Shown: positions 1,168-8,152, numbered from the stretch's first letter. The stretch: DNA of 9,420 bases from a virus (IMGVR_UViG_2695420763_000021:1-9420), one strand, 5' to 3'. Notes: generated by a model not told the origin, from the letters alone. Made by a program: numbers and translations.

Positions 1168-1208
1168 TGGATTTGCCCCTATATTTCCAGACATCTGTTA
1201 TCACTTAA
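1168..1208. repeat. IS2 right terminal inverted repeat (IRR)
   Basis: Imperfect inverted repeat partner of 2457-2498; begins TGGATTTGCCCC. Confidence 0.8.
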
Positions 1209-2084
1209 CCCATTACAAGCCCACTGCCGCAGATATTCCCGTGGCGAGCGATAACCCAGCGCACTATGCGGATGCCATTCGTTATAATGCTCGAACGCCT
1301 CTGCAAGGTTCTTTGCTGCCGTTAACCCGTCTGGTTTGGGCATGATACTGATGTAGTCACGCTTTATCGTTTTCACGAAGCTCTCTGCTATTCCGTTACT
1401 CTCCGGACTCCGCACCGCCGTGTTCTTCGGTTCAAGTCCCAACATCCGGGCGAACTGGCGTGTTTCATTAGCCCGGTAGCATGAACCATTATCCGTCAGC
1501 CACTCCACTGGAGACGACGGAAGATCGTTGCCGAAGCGGCGTTCCACCGCTCCCAGCATGACGTCCTGTACTGTTTCACTGTTGAAGCCGCCGGTAGTCA
1601 CCGCCCAGTGCAGTGCCTCACGATCACAGCAGTCCAGCGCGAACGTGACACGCAGTCTCTCTCCGTTATCACAGCAGAACTCGAACCCGTCAGAGCACCA
1701 TCGCTGATTGCTTTCTTTCACGGCCACTCTGCCTGTATGTGCCCGTTTCGATGGCGGTACAGTAGGTTTTCGCTCAAGCAACAGCGCATTCTGGCGCATG
1801 ATCCGGTAAACACGTTTGGCATTGATCGCAGGCATACCATCAAGTTCTGCCTGTCTGCGAAGCAGCGCCCATACCCGACGATAACCATACGTGGGCAGCT
1901 CTCCGATAACATGGTGTATACGGAGAAGCACATCCGTATCATCAGTGTGACGACTGCGGCGGCCATCCATCCAGTCATCGGTTCGTCTGAGAATGACGTA
2001 CAACTGCGCACGCGACACCCGGAGACAACGGCTGACTAAGCTTACTCCCCATCCCCGGGCAATAAGGGCGCGTGCGCTATCCAC
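1179..2084 (-). CDS. insD: IS2 transposase OrfB (InsD), DDE integrase-like catalytic domain
   Basis: 301-aa ORF inside IS2. The translation (e.g. ...[18 protein letters not shown]...[11 protein letters not shown]...[18 protein letters not shown]) matches IS2 InsD as recalled. Its 5' end overlaps orfA in the -1 frame. Confidence 0.9.
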
Positions 2085-2407
2085 TTTTTTGCCCGTCCAT
2101 ATTCAACGGCTTCTTTGAGGAGTTCATTTTCCATCGTTTTCTTGCCGAGCAGGCGCTGGAGTTCTTTAATCTGCTTCATGGCGGCAGCAAGTTCAGAGGC
2201 AGGAACAACCTGTTCTCCGGCGGCGACAGCAGTAAGACTTCCTTCCTGGTATTGCTTACGCCAGAGAAATAACTGGCTGGCTGCTACACCATGTTGCCGG
2301 GCAACGAGGGAGACCGTCATCCCCGGTTCAAAGCTCTGCTGAACAATTGCGATCTTTTCCTGTGTGGTACGCCGTCTGCGTTTCTCCGGCCCTAAGACAT
2401 CAATCAT
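2042..2407 (-). CDS. insC: IS2 transposase OrfA (InsC), HTH DNA-binding subunit
   Basis: Start placed at the internal ATG 2407..2405 ([24 protein letters not shown]...), giving 121 aa. The track ORF extends upstream to 2452 but that reads through the IRL-proximal sequence. Confidence 0.88.
2084..2090 (-). other. A6G slippery heptamer for programmed -1 ribosomal frameshift (OrfA to OrfAB fusion transposase)
   Basis: Minus strand reads AAAAAAG at 2090..2084, inside the orfA/orfB overlap and at the 5' end of the orfB frame. IS3-family elements, including IS2, use this motif. Confidence 0.6.
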
Positions 2408-2456
2408 CTGTTCTCCAATGACTAGTCTAAAAACTAGTATTAAGACTATCACTTAT

Positions 2457-2498
2457 TTAAGTGATACTGGTTGTCTGGAGATTCAGGGGGCCAGTCTA
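2457..2498. repeat. IS2 left terminal inverted repeat (IRL)
   Basis: Ends ...GGGGGCCAGTCTA at 2498; partner of 1168-1208. Confidence 0.8.
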
Positions 2499-2696
2499 AG
2501 ATTCCCCGAAACGCTTCTCCATAAATAATTCATAGGCTGCTCGTTCATCCGATACTGCTGCCAGTGATGCCTGTGCAATTTTTAATGCGGTAAGCATGTT
2601 GTTTTGATCTTCATCGAGTCCGAACGGTATTTCATCCCGTGCTGACTCAATGCTGGTAATCGTGTTCTGTAACCATTCTTTGGTAAGAGTATTCAT
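2496..2696 (-). pseudogene. Hypothetical phage early protein, probably 3'-truncated by IS2 (66 codons remain)
   Basis: ATG 2696..2694 with AAGGTGA about 9 nt upstream. The frame runs straight into IS2, and its stop codon TAG (2498..2496) is the terminal 3 nt of the IS2 IRL. The N-terminal 45 aa are paralogous to the 155-aa ORF at 2892-3359. Confidence 0.5.
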
Positions 2697-2698
2697 AA

Positions 2699-2890
2699 CT
2701 ATTTCACCTTAATCTCAACATTTCGCAGCTTTAGCTCTACTGGCAAGTCTGACTTTCCTGTTAATGCTAATGCGAGATTTTCAGGAGTAATGAGAGCAGT
2801 TATTGTTTTCCCCATCGCCAGACGAATAATCATTCGTATCTCGCGATCGTCACATGCTCCCGGTCGAACAATTGATATTTGTCCGTTCAT
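2699..2890 (-). CDS. Hypothetical small phage protein (63 aa; alternative start at 2911 gives 70 aa)
   Basis: ATG 2890..2888 is preceded by AAGGAGA at about 6 nt spacing and sits 1 nt after the stop of the upstream ORF. The stop at 2701..2699 is followed 2 nt later by the next ATG. Confidence 0.5.
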   Translation of the reverse strand: MNGQISIVRPGACDDREIRMIIRLAMGKTITALITPENLALALTGKSDLPVELKLRNVEIKVK

Positions 2891-2891
2891 C

Positions 2892-3359
2892 TCACTCTCC
2901 TTTGATGCCAATGTTTACAGCCTGACAAGCCTCTTTGAGCACCCAGTCAACAGCGTCTTTCCATGCTCCGGTTTCGACTGGCGGATTTTCACTCTTAACC
3001 TGTTCATAGAAGCGCACCGCTTTAATCAATCCTTCGGGTGTCAGTGGCACAGGCTGGGCCGTGAATAACGCCTGAATTTCATAGTTCGGCCTGTCGTTGC
3101 AATCCTCTTTTGTCGGTACATATTTCCAGTCACCAACCCACGGCTTCTCCTGAAAGTTCGTAACGCCTTTTCTCACGTAGCGATATCGCCATGTCACCGG
3201 TTCGGCTTCCAGCGATGCCAGCGCGACTTTAAATGCGGTAAGTACGTTTTTAACCACATCGATTTTGAATACTATTTCATCACATACAAACGATTTATCG
3301 TCTACTACCGTTTCAATTCCGGTAATCGTGTTTTGTAGCCATTTGGTTAATTCAGCCAT
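2892..3359 (-). CDS. Hypothetical phage early protein (155 aa) with an N-terminal module shared with ORF 2496-2696
   Basis: 155-aa ORF. N-terminus MAELTKWLQNTITGIE...ASLEA aligns with MNTLTKEWLQNTITSIE...ASLAA of the 66-aa ORF, and the DNA is also about 80 percent similar over roughly 150 bp. The C-terminal part is Trp-rich and unique. Confidence 0.65.
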   Translation of the reverse strand: MAELTKWLQNTITGIETVVDDKSFVCDEIVFKIDVVKNVLTAFKVALASLEAEPVTWRYRYVRKGVTNFQEKPWVGDWKYVPTKEDCNDRPNYEIQALFTAQPVPLTPEGLIKAVRFYEQVKSENPPVETGAWKDAVDWVLKEACQAVNIGIKGE

Positions 3360-3490
3360 TTTTCATTACCGCCCTTTCGGGCGGTCTCCTGATGTTCTGA
3401 GAGTGCAGGAATCCCTCCGGTTAAGGATTTAATAAAATTCACTTCTGATTTAAATTTTTCAGTGTTTTGTTGTCAGGTGGTTTATCGCCT

Positions 3491-3802
3491 TTATGCTTCA
3501 ACCTTATTTCTCAGCCATACACAAACCGGACCATCTTCAGTGTCATGAATGGAACCAATGAACCAGCCTTCACCTTCCGGGCGCTCCGGTTTCCAGGAGG
3601 CAATATCGGGACCATCTGCGTCCAGATTAAAATCATCTTCATCCATAGTTCTGATGGTCCATTGAAGATTATTTCCCTCCATCCATGCGTTAAACTCTTC
3701 CGTTGAAATATGTTCTCTACCATCACAGAATTTTTCATATTCAGGATGCGTCCAGCAGCCATATTCATCACGTACTACTGGTATTTCTTTAATTTCATTC
3801 AT
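3491..3802 (-). CDS. Hypothetical phage protein (103 aa), acidic, Trp-rich
   Basis: ATG 3802..3800 with GGGAGA about 7 nt upstream. Overlaps the upstream ORF's stop by 8 nt. The translation looks protein-like (MNEIKEIPVVRDEYGCWTHPEYEKF...). Confidence 0.65.
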   Translation of the reverse strand: MNEIKEIPVVRDEYGCWTHPEYEKFCDGREHISTEEFNAWMEGNNLQWTIRTMDEDDFNLDADGPDIASWKPERPEGEGWFIGSIHDTEDGPVCVWLRNKVEA

Positions 3803-4049
3803 TTCTGTTCTCCCACGTTTTCAGACTTTCACCACAGAACGGACAAAATGAAACCCGCACTGGTGATTTAGAAAATTCACCGGAACGCAACATCACCAAA
3901 TCAGGGCCGCGAGTTAAACTCTCATTCCAGATTTTGTATATCAGCAGACCTTTTCGCGCCGTGTATTCAGCATCATGCTCAAGGGATTTTGCCAGTGCTG
4001 CACATGGTTCTATCTTATTGCCATTAATTTGGCATTTTGACTCACTCAC
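3795..4049 (-). CDS. Hypothetical small protein (84 aa) with a C-terminal CPFCG motif
   Basis: GTG start 4049..4047 is preceded by a strong AAGGAGG at 6 nt spacing and overlaps the upstream stop as GTGA. The track's longer 96-aa version also begins at a GTG (4085..4083) but lacks an RBS. Cys at positions 6, 16, 68 and 71 of the 84-aa product. Confidence 0.55.
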   Translation of the reverse strand: MSESKCQINGNKIEPCAALAKSLEHDAEYTARKGLLIYKIWNESLTRGPDLVMLRSGEFSKSPVRVSFCPFCGESLKTWENRNE

Positions 4050-4285
4050 TGGTTGCCTCCTTTGCGGATCTGCGCTGCGATGCACGAAAAAAAAGACTCT
4101 CGCGTATGACTGTTAAGAGCTGGCGCGAACGCCGCGTTAAGAACGGCAGCATCACAGCCGTCATCGATATAGAGCGCAATTTTTTTCTCTAGGCGTGCTT
4201 TAGCTTCCTGCAACTGCATACCCCGGCACGCACGCGGGATATACTCAGCAATTTGAGCGATAGATTTTTCGTTCTGTTTAAACAT
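4046..4285 (-). CDS. Hypothetical small protein (79 aa)
   Basis: ATG 4285..4283 with GAGGTGA 5 nt upstream. Overlaps the upstream ORF by 8 nt (ATGTTTAA). Confidence 0.55.
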   Translation of the reverse strand: MFKQNEKSIAQIAEYIPRACRGMQLQEAKARLEKKIALYIDDGCDAAVLNAAFAPALNSHTRESFFSCIAAQIRKGGNQ

Positions 4286-4481
4286 GCTTCACCTCGATAG
4301 GCTTGATGGTATCGATCAGCAGTCGGCGGCGAGTATTTTCTGCAAAGTGGCGGCGTCCGGTTTCTTTGTGGTAAAACTCGTTTTTTCCGACGACCCACAT
4401 CCGCTTTGTCTGGTGCAGTTTTTTTACCTGCGGACCGTCTCGGGTGATAACAATTCCCGTATGAGTTTTTATCACGCTCAT
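4278..4481 (-). CDS. Hypothetical small basic protein (67 aa), in the position occupied by yfdT in CPS-53
   Basis: ATG 4481..4479 overlaps the yfdS-like stop as ATGA. Basic composition. Confidence 0.5.
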   Translation of the reverse strand: MSVIKTHTGIVITRDGPQVKKLHQTKRMWVVGKNEFYHKETGRRHFAENTRRRLLIDTIKPIEVKHV

Positions 4482-4840
4482 TTCTTATTCTCCGGTGCTT
4501 TTGGCATTACTGCCCAGTGAGTGATATTGACGTTTTCAAGGTCCCCGACCTGAAATGTCCACTGCCATTCTCCGGTTTCTTTTTGTCCCCAGGTGTACCA
4601 GAGAGAACGCCAGCCAATCAGCCAGCCTTCTCCGTTAGCATCAAATAACAGAACACTTTCATTTGCTGGCGGCAGTTCAGCTGACACTGGCATTATTTTG
4701 TTTTCCAGTGCCGCACATTTAGCTTCAAGCGCATCGAATTTACGTACCAGGTACTCAGCATTTGTTTCATTCACTTTCAGATCTCGCGGTACACATTTCC
4801 CGCGAAGAAACCCTTCCATTTCGAAAACATTCATGCGCAT
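4478..4840 (-). CDS. yfdS: YfdS-like phage protein (120 aa)
   Basis: 120-aa ORF immediately downstream of, and overlapping, the HD-domain gene. Its size and position match CPS-53 yfdS as recalled. An in-frame ATG two codons in (4834) overlaps the upstream stop as ATGA. Confidence 0.55.
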   Translation of the reverse strand: MRMNVFEMEGFLRGKCVPRDLKVNETNAEYLVRKFDALEAKCAALENKIMPVSAELPPANESVLLFDANGEGWLIGWRSLWYTWGQKETGEWQWTFQVGDLENVNITHWAVMPKAPENKK

Positions 4841-6385: not shown

Positions 6386-6748
6386 TTAATGACCTGCTGC
6401 GCGGAGTTTTCCGTCAGGTTCACCGGCAAGAGTCAGTAATTGTCCCTGGTCTTCCTGCAGAATAGTCAGGCGACCACCGCGATTGACATACATCGGCGTT
6501 TCGGTGGTGTCTTCTTCGGAAATTTTCCCGCGGTTAGTCGGGCGAACATATGAGAGTTTGTGTTTTATTTTCACACGGTTCTCATCAAACGGTTCGATTT
6601 CCAGGTTGAGCGAGACCTTACCTTTGGTTTTCGTGTTCATCACACCGGAAGCGACTTCACTGAGAACTGCGCCGATTTTGGTTTCAAATACGCCGCCGTC
6701 CAGCTCCCCGATAAATGCCTGCACATCAGTACTGCGTTCGCTAGCCAT
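6386..6748 (-). CDS. yfdP: YfdP-like phage protein (121 aa), first gene of the pL operon
   Basis: Start chosen at ATG 6748..6746 (MASERSTDVQAF...) because AGGAG lies 7 nt upstream. The track's 182-aa version starts at an upstream GTG, and the extra N-terminal 62 codons are Cys/Arg/Pro-rich and look non-coding. Confidence 0.55.
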   Translation of the reverse strand: MASERSTDVQAFIGELDGGVFETKIGAVLSEVASGVMNTKTKGKVSLNLEIEPFDENRVKIKHKLSYVRPTNRGKISEEDTTETPMYVNRGGRLTILQEDQGQLLTLAGEPDGKLRAAGH

Positions 6749-6796
6749 TTTGCTGCTCCTCATCATATCGACCCTGCAAGGTCGGTTAGTTTCTCC

Positions 6797-6895
6797 ACAA
6801 AACAGAGAAGAACACCTGCGGTGGCAGCCGCCCGGATGGATTGGGTTATGAGCCCGTCGTCCGGTGATGCTCTTCTCTGTTTTGTAAAAAGAGCG
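6797..6895 (-). promoter_or_regulatory. Structured element in the pL leader: boxA-like CGCTCTTTTTA followed directly by a 15-bp perfect inverted repeat with a 59-nt loop
   Basis: Minus strand reads CGCTCTTTTTA at 6895..6885. Stem arms are 6871-6885 (TCTTCTCTGTTTTGT) and 6797-6811 (ACAAAACAGAGAAGA), exact reverse complements. A second 10-bp inverted repeat (6893-6902 / 6922-6931) lies just upstream. Confidence 0.35.
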
Positions 6896-7089
6896 GTACC
6901 AGCCGGAAGCAAGTGTACAAACTGGTACCGCCAAAGCAGTGGCTGTTGTGGTGACCGGTGCTGATCTCCGGCTTGCGGTTATTTCAGACTCTCACGGGCG
7001 TTTAATTGCCCCGCCGAACAGCTCTTTTCCGCAATAGCTGCAATGTCTTTCGCGCATCAGCCTGCGCATTCACCACAACTCTAAAAACA

Positions 7090-7119
7090 AATGTAGGATA
7101 TCCAACATGTAAGTGTCAA
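7090..7119 (-). promoter_or_regulatory. pL-like early-left promoter (-35 TTGACA 7119..7114, 18-nt spacer, -10 TACATT 7095..7090)
   Basis: Minus strand reads TTGACActtacatgttggatatccTACATT, nearly identical to the pR module at 7894-7923. The -10 is embedded in operator OL-a. Confidence 0.6.
7091..7108. promoter_or_regulatory. Repressor operator OL-a (18-bp palindrome ATGTAGGATATCCAACAT)
   Basis: Exact reverse complement of OR-c (7905-7922). Half-site consensus ATGTWGGAT. Overlaps the pL -10. Confidence 0.65.
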
Positions 7120-7125
7120 GAGTTT

Positions 7126-7143
7126 ATGTTGGTTATCCTACAT
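7126..7143. promoter_or_regulatory. Repressor operator OL-b (ATGTTGGTTATCCTACAT)
   Basis: 17 of 18 matches to the operator consensus; lies just upstream of the pL -35. Confidence 0.6.
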
Positions 7144-7160
7144 AAAAAGATAGGCTCATA

Positions 7161-7185
7161 AAAAAACCGGGGATACCCCGGTTTT
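7161..7185 (-). terminator. Rho-independent terminator downstream of the repressor gene (bidirectional hairpin)
   Basis: AAAAAA-CCGGGG-ATA-CCCCGG-TTTT. On the minus strand a GC stem is followed by UUUUUU, 20 nt after the repressor stop and before OL/pL. Confidence 0.7.
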
Positions 7186-7205
7186 GCGATAGTGAGGAAG
7201 ATGTG

Positions 7206-7859
7206 TCAAAAATCCATTATTACTTGTTTGACAAGACCAACTATTCTGCAGTTTTCACCGCATTCAATAGTTTTATAGTTAGGATTTAGTGGGACGAGAT
7301 ACCTGTTCGGCCAGTCCTCAACAAATTTTTTGAGTGTCGCTTCTTGCCCACCATTGATATGGGCAACAACGATTTTTCCGTTAATACACTCTGTATCAAT
7401 AATATCTGGCTCTACGATAACGATAGAACCTTCTGGTATCGATGGTGAGCCGAGGGGATTGGTCATTGAATCACCACGGACCCGTAGTGCAAATGCCATT
7501 TCTGATACAAGGGCGGTAGTATAAACCCACTCTTCAGCATCTTCTTTCCTGACACCAGGCTCCGTCATTGTCCATGAACCCGCCTGAACCCACGAGATGA
7601 GGGGGACTTTTTTAACTGCGAATATTTCAGGTTTTAGATTTATCTTTGGTTCAGGCGAGCCTTTTCCGCTAACAAGCCACAGAGGATCGCATTTAAGTGC
7701 GTTGGCTAGGGCTTGAAGGTTGGCTCCATTTGGTTGGTAGTCGTCCTTTTCCCATCCAGTAACCGTGACACGGTTCACACCAGTCAAATCAGCCAGTGCT
7801 TGTTGTGTCAGGTTCAGTTCTTTTCGCCTTTGGCGAATACGATCACTCATGTTCATCAT
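7206..7859 (-). CDS. CI-type prophage repressor: N-terminal HTH (XRE family) plus C-terminal S24 LexA-like autopeptidase
   Basis: 217 aa. HTH segment LTQQALADLTGVNRVTVTGWE. Ala-Gly cleavage-site context VQAG (as in lambda CI). Catalytic Ser in RVRGDSM and Lys in ATLKKF. The start ATG lies within operator OR-a, so the transcript is leaderless or nearly so, as for lambda pRM. Confidence 0.85.
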   Translation of the reverse strand: MMNMSDRIRQRRKELNLTQQALADLTGVNRVTVTGWEKDDYQPNGANLQALANALKCDPLWLVSGKGSPEPKINLKPEIFAVKKVPLISWVQAGSWTMTEPGVRKEDAEEWVYTTALVSEMAFALRVRGDSMTNPLGSPSIPEGSIVIVEPDIIDTECINGKIVVAHINGGQEATLKKFVEDWPNRYLVPLNPNYKTIECGENCRIVGLVKQVIMDF

Positions 7860-7875
7860 GTAGGCAATCCTACCA
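7858..7875. promoter_or_regulatory. Repressor operator OR-a (ATGTAGGCAATCCTACCA), overlapping the repressor start codon
   Basis: 15 of 18 matches to the palindromic consensus. Confidence 0.5.
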
Positions 7876-7882
7876 CATGCTC

Positions 7883-7900
7883 ATGTAGGATTCTTGACAT
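7883..7900. promoter_or_regulatory. Repressor operator OR-b (ATGTAGGATTCTTGACAT), overlapping the pR -35
   Basis: Perfect left half-site ATGTAGGAT; the right half is degenerate and contains TTGACA. Confidence 0.5.
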
Positions 7901-7923
7901 TGGCATGTTGGATATCCTACATT
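7894..7923 (+). promoter_or_regulatory. pR-like early-right promoter (-35 TTGACA 7894-7899, 18-nt spacer, -10 TACATT 7918-7923)
   Basis: Consensus -35, 18-bp spacer, 4 of 6 match in the -10. Lies about 30 nt upstream of the cro-like gene, whose RBS is GGGAGA at 7944-7949. Confidence 0.6.
7905..7922. promoter_or_regulatory. Repressor operator OR-c (ATGTTGGATATCCTACAT), overlapping the pR -10
   Basis: Perfect 18-bp palindrome-type site; reverse complement of OL-a. Confidence 0.65.
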
Positions 7924-7954
7924 TCTGCTTAACGTAATTTAACGGGAGACAGAA

Positions 7955-8152
7955 ATGCGGAAATCCGACGTGATTAATTATTTCGGCGGAGTTTGTAAAA
8001 CCGCCGAAGCCCTAGGTATTAAGCATCCGTCTGTTTCAGAGTGGCCTGAGATTATTCCTGAAGGCCGAGCGTACCAGTTAGAAAAAATTACTAACGGGAA
8101 ACTGAAAGTTGACGTGTCTTTATATCAAAAGACTAACAGTGCTGCGGCATAA
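7955..8152 (+). CDS. Cro-like HTH regulator (65 aa)
   Basis: First gene after pR and divergent from the repressor. INYFGG...KTAEALGIKHPSVSEW resembles lambda Cro ([25 protein letters not shown]). Confidence 0.75.
   Translation: MRKSDVINYFGGVCKTAEALGIKHPSVSEWPEIIPEGRAYQLEKITNGKLKVDVSLYQKTNSAAA

Follow-up and report, generated by a model that had tools for sequence, protein, structure and literature searches.

Whether the run of seven small open reading frames (ORFs) on the minus strand of a 9,420-nucleotide (nt) stretch of viral DNA (IMGVR_UViG_2695420763_000021:1-9420) is a single anti-defense module or a looser set of accessory genes is the question that this locus raises. The ORFs, called P1 to P7 here, follow a yfdS-like gene, and "the window" below means the whole stretch at its full length. 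The original prediction, which was made from the sequence alone, viewed the seven ORFs as a cassette at the distal end of the leftward early operon of a lambdoid prophage and as the likeliest place in the window for an anti-defense or host-modulation module. Our analysis indicated an ordinary accessory region of mosaic make-up, in which one gene is truncated by IS2 and no anti-defense module is recognizable. We consider it probable, if well short of certain, that P1 to P7 are mosaic lambdoid early accessory genes whose products would serve as early modulators of host physiology and of the lysis-lysogeny decision.

The array and the distribution of its modules

The seven ORFs and the gene directly upstream of them occupied the following window positions.

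4478-4840, minus strand: yfdS-like upstream neighbor, 120 amino acids (aa); its stop overlaps the P1 start (ATGA)
4278-4481, minus strand: P1, 67 aa
4046-4285, minus strand: P2, 79 aa
3795-4049, minus strand: P3, 84 aa, counted from the GTG start that overlaps the P2 stop
3491-3802, minus strand: P4, 103 aa
2892-3359, minus strand: P5, 155 aa
2699-2890, minus strand: P6, 63 aa; its ATG is one base past the P5 stop
2496-2696, minus strand: P7, 66 aa; start of a truncated gene

The ORFs were found exactly at the coordinates and sizes first reported for them, and the sequence confirmed the junctions described: ATGA between the yfdS-like gene and P1, GTGA between P2 and P3, 8-nt overlaps between P1 and P2 (ATGTTTAA) and between P3 and P4 (ATGAATGA), and gaps of 131 nt between P4 and P5, 1 nt between P5 and P6, and 2 nt between P6 and P7. 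The 4- and 8-nt start/stop overlaps were consistent with translational coupling. Most of the ORFs had been credited with good Shine-Dalgarno sequences, and we located such sequences (GGAG, GAGG, or AAGGAG type, 5 to 9 nt upstream) at six of the seven starts. The exception in spacing was P5, whose GGAG lies upstream of a hairpin that is described in the last section.

The frames and starts of P1 to P6 were called identically by the NCBI Prokaryotic Genome Annotation Pipeline (PGAP) in NZ_CP148277, where P7 was called as the start of a pseudogene. The annotation of phage mEp460_4F5, which is of the Rapid Annotation using Subsystem Technology (RAST) style, contained the same six coding sequences (CDSs) with the same starts. 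Each of P1 to P6 matched a PHROG profile end to end (E values of 1e-40 to 1e-53), and the P7 match was weak (E of 1.2e-6). Homologs of P4 and P1 with identities down to 44 to 52% were present in Klebsiella, Salmonella, Citrobacter, Pantoea, Erwinia, Serratia, and others. These comparisons indicated that P1 to P6 are real, intact genes rather than chance ORFs. The view of the array as seven small genes held for these six; the seventh, P7, proved to be the IS2-cut start of a gene of 177 to 250 aa. None of the P1 to P7 products was hydrophobic overall or matched an enzyme family, and they are small, soluble, cytoplasmic proteins.

To determine the prevalence of the array, 5426 complete E. coli genomes were searched, with at least 80% coverage required for each segment. 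P1 and P2 together were found in 505 genomes, P3 and P4 in 252, P6 with the P7 fragment in 151, and P5 in 79, but the whole 2.4-kb stretch was found in only 7. The idea of a cassette that co-varies as a unit across prophages was, therefore, not upheld. The partial matches broke at gene borders, at about window positions 3493 and 2888.

The modules also turned up in other surroundings. In strains 06-00048 and E2348/69, Rac/Qin-like prophages carried P3-P4(-P5-P6) in their rightward early operon, where YdaS/YdaT, replication, and DUF977 genes preceded it and DUF968, RusA, and Q genes followed. Since modules of the array are also found in rightward operons, the early-left position is not specific to them. 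In Klebsiella, P1-P2 followed O/P/DUF977 genes; in Salmonella, P1 was followed directly by a P4 homolog; and in a minimal E. coli relative, P1 stood alone between yfdS and xis. Serratia, Klebsiella, and Pantoea carried P4 homologs, without P3, in arrays of small early ORFs between the repressor gene and xis/int, and the homolog in Pantoea prophages lay two ORFs downstream of a DUF1317 (lambda orf60a family) gene.

As for the ORFs and overlaps in relatives, the 8-nt overlap of P1 and P2 was kept, but the array as a whole was not kept together. The array appears to consist of independently exchangeable modules, with two conserved pairs (P1-P2, and P3-P4 within E. coli) and free assortment of the rest. 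It is best treated in this way, with the seventh ORF taken as an insertion-sequence artifact. Its make-up can be described as the P1-P2 pair, the P3-P4 pair, an ea22-slot gene (P5) whose N-terminal module has been swapped, P6, and the IS2-cut P7.

Position in the early operon and proposed role

Upstream of the array, the window contains a cI-like repressor gene (7206-7859), yfdP, yfdQ (DUF2303), yfdR (5'-deoxynucleotidase), and yfdS in that order, the same genes as in CPS-53 of E. coli K-12. The yfdP, yfdQ, yfdR, and yfdS genes showed 99% identity, and the yfdS-like product was 99% identical to K-12 YfdS. The yfdS-like gene matched phrog_583; its DUF551 match was marginal (E of 0.0014; 19.9 bits, under the 22-bit cutoff). 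A cro-like gene was also present in the window. In a mechanical translation, the yfdP ORF (6386-6934) encodes 182 aa, compared to 120 to 123 aa in the annotated relatives, and the N-terminal extension of the 182-aa ORF is probably not translated. Two candidate promoters flanked the repressor gene.

7090-7119, minus strand: candidate pL-like promoter, TTGACA-18-TACATT, from a consensus scan (10 of 12 positions matched), just left of the cI-like gene
7894-7923, plus strand: candidate pR-like promoter, same hexamer pair and same spacing, divergent from the pL-like site

By consensus match only, these two sites are candidates for a pL/pR pair around the repressor gene, and the pL-like site would drive yfdP-yfdQ-yfdR-yfdS-P1 through P7.

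Both the neighboring genes and the related phages supported the predicted position in the leftward early operon of a lambdoid prophage. Phage mEp460_4F5 encodes P1 to P5 at 99 to 100% protein identity. Its P5 gene is followed by ORFs of 95 aa and 177 aa (YfdT-like) and then by ORFs of 190 aa and 93 aa, which stand where mEp460 and NZ_CP148277 have their exonuclease and excisionase genes; its integrase gene lies past two opposite-strand ORFs. The 177-aa ORF ends in a sequence that is found at the end of the DUF551-annotated gp27 of mEp460. The gene order in mEp460 itself is yfdS-like gene, P1, P2, Ea22-like gene, P6, full-length P7, exonuclease, and excisionase, with P3 to P5 missing. In both mEp460 and NZ_CP148277, the array leads into a gene of the 3'-5' exonuclease family and a PrtN-type excisionase gene, and an integrase gene is found further on in the two phages mEp460_4F5 and mEp460. 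In the Shiga toxin (Stx) 2a phage VT2phi_272, P1-P2 is located downstream of RecT and exonuclease genes, which is the exo-xis position. Because of the gene order in mEp460_4F5, mEp460, and VT2phi_272, we view the array as the counterpart of the lambda exo-xis and P22-type "ea" regions. The position typical of this accessory class was seen in the related phages; in the window, the distal part is replaced by IS2. Gene content and order mark the region as the accessory part of a leftward early operon in a CPS-53/mEp460/SfV-type lambdoid prophage.

The lambda exo-xis region (orf60a, orf63, orf61, orf73, ea22, and ea8.5) and its equivalent in Stx phages are found in the same place, the distal leftward early operon before xis/int. 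Like the array, they are mosaic and contain tightly packed, small, non-essential-looking genes of unknown biochemical function. The proximity of the Pantoea P4 homolog to an orf60a-family gene is a further likeness, and so is the 3' end of P5. Specifically, the last 20 nt of P5, GCATCAAAGGAGAGTGAGAT (window positions 2892-2915), were identical to the end of lambda ea22 (about 2348-2370 of lambda locus L005). This sequence encodes the ...IKGE tail that the two genes share, together with the stop codon, and in P5 it also supplies the next gene with its Shine-Dalgarno site; otherwise, P5 and lambda ea22 are unrelated. A close variant of the sequence was found in mEp460 gp29, which occupies the same slot as P5 and is annotated as Ea22-like. 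Because this 20-nt 3' end is shared with lambda ea22, we placed P5 in the ea22 slot. The shared sequence looks like a short boundary sequence for lambdoid module exchange and would be a clean example of one.

The rest of P5 showed two modules. The N-terminal module of about 50 aa is common to P7 (51% identity) and mEp460 gp27 (70% identity), and the C-terminal domain is different; P5 matched phrog_660 and phrog_26213. The shared N terminus and differing C-terminal parts of P5 and P7 mirror the modular build of Ea22 proteins (PMC10834534).

The array also differs from lambda exo-xis. The upstream genes are yfdP/Q/R/S rather than the exo/bet/gam of lambda, and the products lack similarity to the lambda proteins. 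No match between P1 to P7 and the products of lambda orf60a, orf61, orf63, ea22, and ea8.5 was better than an E of 0.1 in phmmer searches with the filters off (8 targets), and tblastn gave the same result. Neither P5 nor P7 matched the Pfam family Ead_Ea22 (PF13935) at E values up to 1.

In the case of K-12 CPS-53 (KpLE1; yfdQ-yfdR-yfdS-yfdT), the likeness lies in the shared upstream genes, including the nearly identical yfdS, and in P7, which is related to YfdT, whose gene directly follows yfdS in K-12. On the other hand, K-12 lacks P1 to P6 and continues from yfdS to yfdT, ypdJ, and torI, and the P7 of the window is truncated and has an N-terminal module unlike YfdT. The likeness to P22 and HK620 is one of label, with "ea" names (EaA and Eae/EaE) that depositors gave and that do not stand for tested functions: the intact P7 homolog of phage 1720a-02 was deposited as "EaA protein," and the yfdS-like gene was deposited as "Eae protein" in 1720a-02 and mEp460_4F5. 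The mEp460 annotation cites NP_112039 and NP_112038, which we take to be HK620 proteins, for its P6 and P7 homologs.

In the mechanism that we propose, the genes would be transcribed from the pL-like promoter beside the repressor gene, through yfdP-yfdQ-yfdR-yfdS, and their translation would be coupled via the 4- and 8-nt start/stop overlaps. The small P1 to P6 products would be made early after induction or infection and would bind macromolecules of the host or the phage. The predicted outcome, by analogy with exo-xis and yfdQRST, would be that host replication and the cell cycle are tuned, along with the balance between lysis and lysogeny; alternatively, one or more of the products would counter host defense. 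In previous work, the exo-xis region on a multicopy plasmid altered lysogenization and induction (PMC3824215), and ea22 was found to be pro-lysogenic and mosaic, with portable C-terminal domains that include DUF551 (PMC7093339, PMC10834534). Furthermore, multicopy yfdQRT or yfdQRS inhibited DnaA-dependent initiation, and YfdR was shown to bind DnaA (PMC4776307).

Several points weigh against the proposed role. The mechanism is drawn by analogy only, from position and neighbors, since none of the products is similar to a functionally known protein, and P1 to P7 have no sequence similarity to the lambda exo-xis proteins. The pL assignment is a consensus match only, and the regional promoter count was not above that of shuffled sequence. 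The presence of the same modules in rightward operons shows that they can do without the early-left context. Finally, expression and function in this strain are uncertain because IS2 breaks the prophage arm. On balance, we ranked modulation of host physiology first, an anti-defense role (for P4 above all) second, and an eroded prophage and helpers of DNA metabolism behind these.

What is new about the locus is the combination of modules. The modules were already catalogued as being of unknown function, the type of region was known, and a nearly identical P1-P5 array is public in a phage genome. The significance of the locus as it stands is, thus, small: its genes are catalogued "known unknowns," and regions of this type have been described for decades. 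Only the P4 family, the conserved P1-P2 pair, and the P5/ea22 boundary sequence go beyond the ordinary. If any of the products does modulate host replication or inhibit immunity, it would add to the poorly understood exo-xis set, which influences Stx-prophage induction.

P1 to P4 and a possible anti-defense role

The statement that none of the products belongs to a characterized family was supported by profile searches. All seven products matched PHROG families of unknown function, and searches of Pfam, NCBIfam, and PADLOC produced no above-threshold match for P1 to P7. The only PADLOC match was a below-threshold match of P5 to MTase_II (E of 0.035). Pfam and NCBIfam include many Acr, Ard, and Ocr-type families; no profile of a known anti-defense or defense family in these three collections matched P1 to P7, although such a role may exist without similarity. 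Sequence searches of the PDB gave no significant match for P1 to P7, and a literature search with six RefSeq protein accessions turned up no paper.

These results bear on the idea that one or more of the small early proteins inhibit a host immune system, with P4 as an acidic decoy or DNA mimic or with P1-P2 or P3 binding a defense sensor. We regard this idea as doubtful, and it is the alternative that fared best. Small size, early position, a non-essential look, and rapid turnover through module exchange characterize these genes; a preprint (bioRxiv 10.1101/2023.04.06.535777) describes this pattern for phage accessory genes with counter-defense functions. The phage accessory-gene screen preprint makes no mention of lambdoid phages, Ea22, or DUF551, and its single mention of P22 concerns the abc1 gene. 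Besides the lack of Pfam, NCBIfam, and PADLOC matches, two findings argue against an anti-defense role: there is no "module" because the genes do not co-vary, and the genes characterized in such regions act on lysogeny and replication and not on immunity (PMC3824215, PMC4776307).

The properties of P4 speak most strongly for anti-defense. P4 is very acidic (pI of 4.3, net charge of -16) and contains six Trp residues, and its family, which is conserved across Enterobacterales prophages, is uniformly very acidic (median net charge of -15). The invariant residues are R11, G15, W17, H19, P72, P75, W80, F81, G83, I85, H86, E89, G91, C94, W96, and R98. In a fold search, the confident model of P4 did not resemble any solved structure, a result that we counted both for the anti-defense reading (no known fold) and against it (no resemblance to a solved protein), and a fold search of BFVD matched uncharacterized phage proteins only. 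We also considered P4 as a diverged DUF551 protein, given that it shares a GEGW(F/L)IG motif with YfdS, and rejected this assignment (profile E of 0.46 over 8 residues only).

In the way that it might work, P4 can be likened to T7 Ocr and ArdA: it is small and early, and its strongly negative charge is family-wide. The likeness does not extend to sequence or fold, since P4 is not similar to any solved structure, and the structural resemblance expected of an acidic DNA mimic of the Ocr/ArdA type was not observed. To our knowledge, an invariant His/His/Cys/Asp/Glu set with Trp, as in P4, is not a known feature of acidic DNA mimics. The specific proposal that P4, possibly with its neighbors P1-P2 and P3, is an undescribed early effector that inhibits a host DNA-binding enzyme or an immune sensor, and hence represents a new anti-defense or host-takeover family, is unlikely in our estimation. 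It draws on the Enterobacterales-wide occurrence of P4, its strong acidity and Trp richness, the invariant His/His/Cys/Asp/Glu set, and the confident model unlike solved structures. Whatever its role, P4 is a well-defined target for functional work: it is widespread, conserved, and very acidic, and its confidently modeled structure has no known relative.

P3, which is a conserved neighbor of P4 within E. coli, matched phrog_4030 and has a narrow family. The four Cys residues that had been noticed in this 84-aa product, including those of the CPFCG motif, were present (CX9C...CPFCG) and conserved across 17 homologs: C69 and C72 were invariant, and C6 and C16 were found in at least 90% of the 17. 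P3 thus has the four conserved ligands of a four-cysteine (Cys4) zinc-binding protein. The family profile matched the zinc ribbon of archaeal RpoM-2 (PDB 7oqy; E of 8e-4), largely via the CPxCG knuckle, and 13 to 14 of the 17 members had sub-threshold knuckle matches to DUF7835 and DUF6980. The AlphaFold2 (AF2) model of P3 had a predicted local distance difference test (pLDDT) score of 43 and was unusable for judging the geometry of the Cys pairs. Taken together, the conservation data make it plausible, and probable, that P3 is a small zinc-binding protein. A CULT (cereblon-like) domain was rejected for P3; it appeared at E values of 0.3 to 0.4 from the single sequence only and was gone with the profile.

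P1 is very basic (pI of 10.8, net charge of +9), as is its whole family, in which the motifs KTHTG and RRRLL are conserved. It matched phrog_1226 (E of 2e-42) and corresponds to the PGAP CDS WP_000111289. The family is small, with 87 cluster representatives among 1.84 billion proteins. A few relatives of P1 have two domains, the N-terminal parts of which have no Pfam family; a fusion to a named family was rejected, and the sole exception, a DUF977 fragment, may result from a mis-called fusion. P2 matched phrog_1344 (E of 4e-53). The adjacency of P1 and P2 and their 8-nt overlap are kept in Klebsiella (at 74% and 52% identity), in VT2phi_272, which is an Stx2a phage, and on a plasmid of 93 kb. 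These findings pointed to P1-P2 as a conserved pair. A type II toxin-antitoxin assignment, which was prompted by adjacency and overlap alone, found no support in Pfam, NCBIfam, and PADLOC, where neither protein matched a toxin or antitoxin family.

On E. coli plasmids, P1-P2 had 162 matching places, and the two plasmids that were sampled were about 93 kb in size. On plasmid NZ_JBREQL010000002.1 (93 kb), P1-P2 is followed by an Ea22-like gene and DUF551 genes. The plasmids that carry P1-P2 are possibly phage-plasmids. In Klebsiella GCA_043073155.1, a Kiwa pair (KwaA/KwaB; 6448-8033 of the locus) was observed a few genes downstream of the P1-P2 homologs in the same prophage.

The IS2 insertion, P6 and the P4/P5 spacer

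The distal end of the array is set by an insertion sequence.

1168-2498, minus strand: complete IS2 of 1331 bp with transposase ORFs at 2042-2452 and 1179-2084; its end sequences were located, and it was named IS2 by matched annotation

When P7 DNA was aligned with phage 1720a-02 and NZ_CP148277, identity was perfect to base 2499 and then broke off. Beyond 2499, the window reads TAGACTGGCCCCCTGAATCTCCAGACAACC..., the terminal sequence of the inserted element, and the IS2 end begins with the three bases that form the TAG stop of P7 (2496-2498). Because homolog identity ends at 2499 and the IS2 terminus begins there, the P7 stop is supplied by IS2. P7 is thus the first 66 codons of a YfdT/EaA/DUF551-type gene that was cut by IS2. 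Intact homologs range from 177 to 250 aa and include the "EaA protein" of 1720a-02 (244 aa), the DUF551-annotated mEp460 gp27, and the 177-aa protein of mEp460_4F5. Although intact relatives are annotated with DUF551 (Pfam PF04448), P7 as encoded here lacks this C-terminal domain because IS2 cuts the gene at codon 66.

P7 is a chimera of an N-terminal module of about 50 aa (M..LTKEWLQNTITxIE...) and a YfdT-like segment. Residues 37-65 were 65.5% identical to K-12 YfdT (b2363) over 29 aa (tblastn E of 5e-8), and the 177-aa intact relative aligned with YfdT over most of its length. This homology places P7 in the YfdT family, and K-12 YfdT is a shortened relative of the intact P7 homologs.

The claim that the array lies at the distal end of the early-left operon was correct as to the leftward early operon. 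Position 2496 is not, however, the natural end, since IS2 interrupts the seventh gene and relatives continue beyond this point. On its other side, IS2 is joined to the 5' part (1-1167) of an ESPR/ECSE_1600-type autotransporter gene. The flanks of IS2 (ATAAG and AGATT) differ, so there is no 5-bp direct repeat, and the autotransporter-IS2-P7 junction was not found in any complete E. coli genome of the collection. The junction points to recombination between two copies of IS2 or to a deletion or inversion that the element mediated. In the K-12-like strain CV601, an IS2 copy was seen in the same autotransporter gene family at a different site.

The insertion raises the possibility that the array is part of an eroding, defective prophage and that its ORFs no longer function in this strain. 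IS2 truncates P7 and stands where the rest of P7 and the exonuclease, excisionase, and integrase end would be expected, and the same slots in relatives are often pseudogenes (DUF551 fragments, frameshifts, and IS1 or IS600 insertions). We consider decay very unlikely as an account of the array given that P1 to P6 are intact, as are their overlaps and Shine-Dalgarno sites; that P1 to P5 are almost identical to the phage mEp460_4F5 proteins and P6 is 97% identical to mEp460 gp28; and that the repressor gene, the cro-like gene, and the candidate pL are present in the window.

P6, the last intact gene before the insertion, encodes a basic protein, matched phrog_1222 (E of 7e-41), and corresponds to the PGAP CDS WP_001014294. 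Part of P6 also matched the C terminus of a PHROG labeled "DNA methyltransferase" (E of 4e-6). This match, the strongly basic P1 (consistent with nucleic acid binding), the flanking of the array by yfdR and the 3'-5' exonuclease gene in relatives, the location of modules elsewhere after O/P/DUF977 replication genes or a ParB-like helix-turn-helix (HTH)/NinC gene, and an S-adenosylmethionine (SAM)-dependent methyltransferase gene adjoining P3-P4 in strain 06-00048 would suit housekeeping phage roles and not host-directed ones, with the small proteins serving the adjacent recombination, replication, or nucleotide functions (YfdQ/DUF2303, the YfdR 5'-deoxynucleotidase, the 3'-5' exonuclease, and methyltransferases) as accessory subunits or as regulators. 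This is the least probable of the explanations because the neighbors differ from prophage to prophage, which leaves no fixed enzymatic partner, and because mEp460 lacks P3 to P5 and the minimal E. coli relative holds only P1, so that none is a required subunit.

The only sizeable spacer of the array, the 131-nt P4/P5 spacer (3360-3490), contains a hairpin that was read from the sequence.

3368-3385, minus strand: hairpin ACCGCCC-GAAA-GGGCGGT, 7-bp GC-rich stem, GAAA loop, no U-run

The hairpin was present in both the minimum-free-energy and centroid folds. It has no U-run and was not called as a terminator, and a canonical terminator was rejected. An Rfam search over the window returned nothing relevant and no match for the hairpin. 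Because the hairpin separates the GGAG (3386-3389) from the P5 ATG (3357-3359), its folding would bring the Shine-Dalgarno sequence near the P5 start codon.

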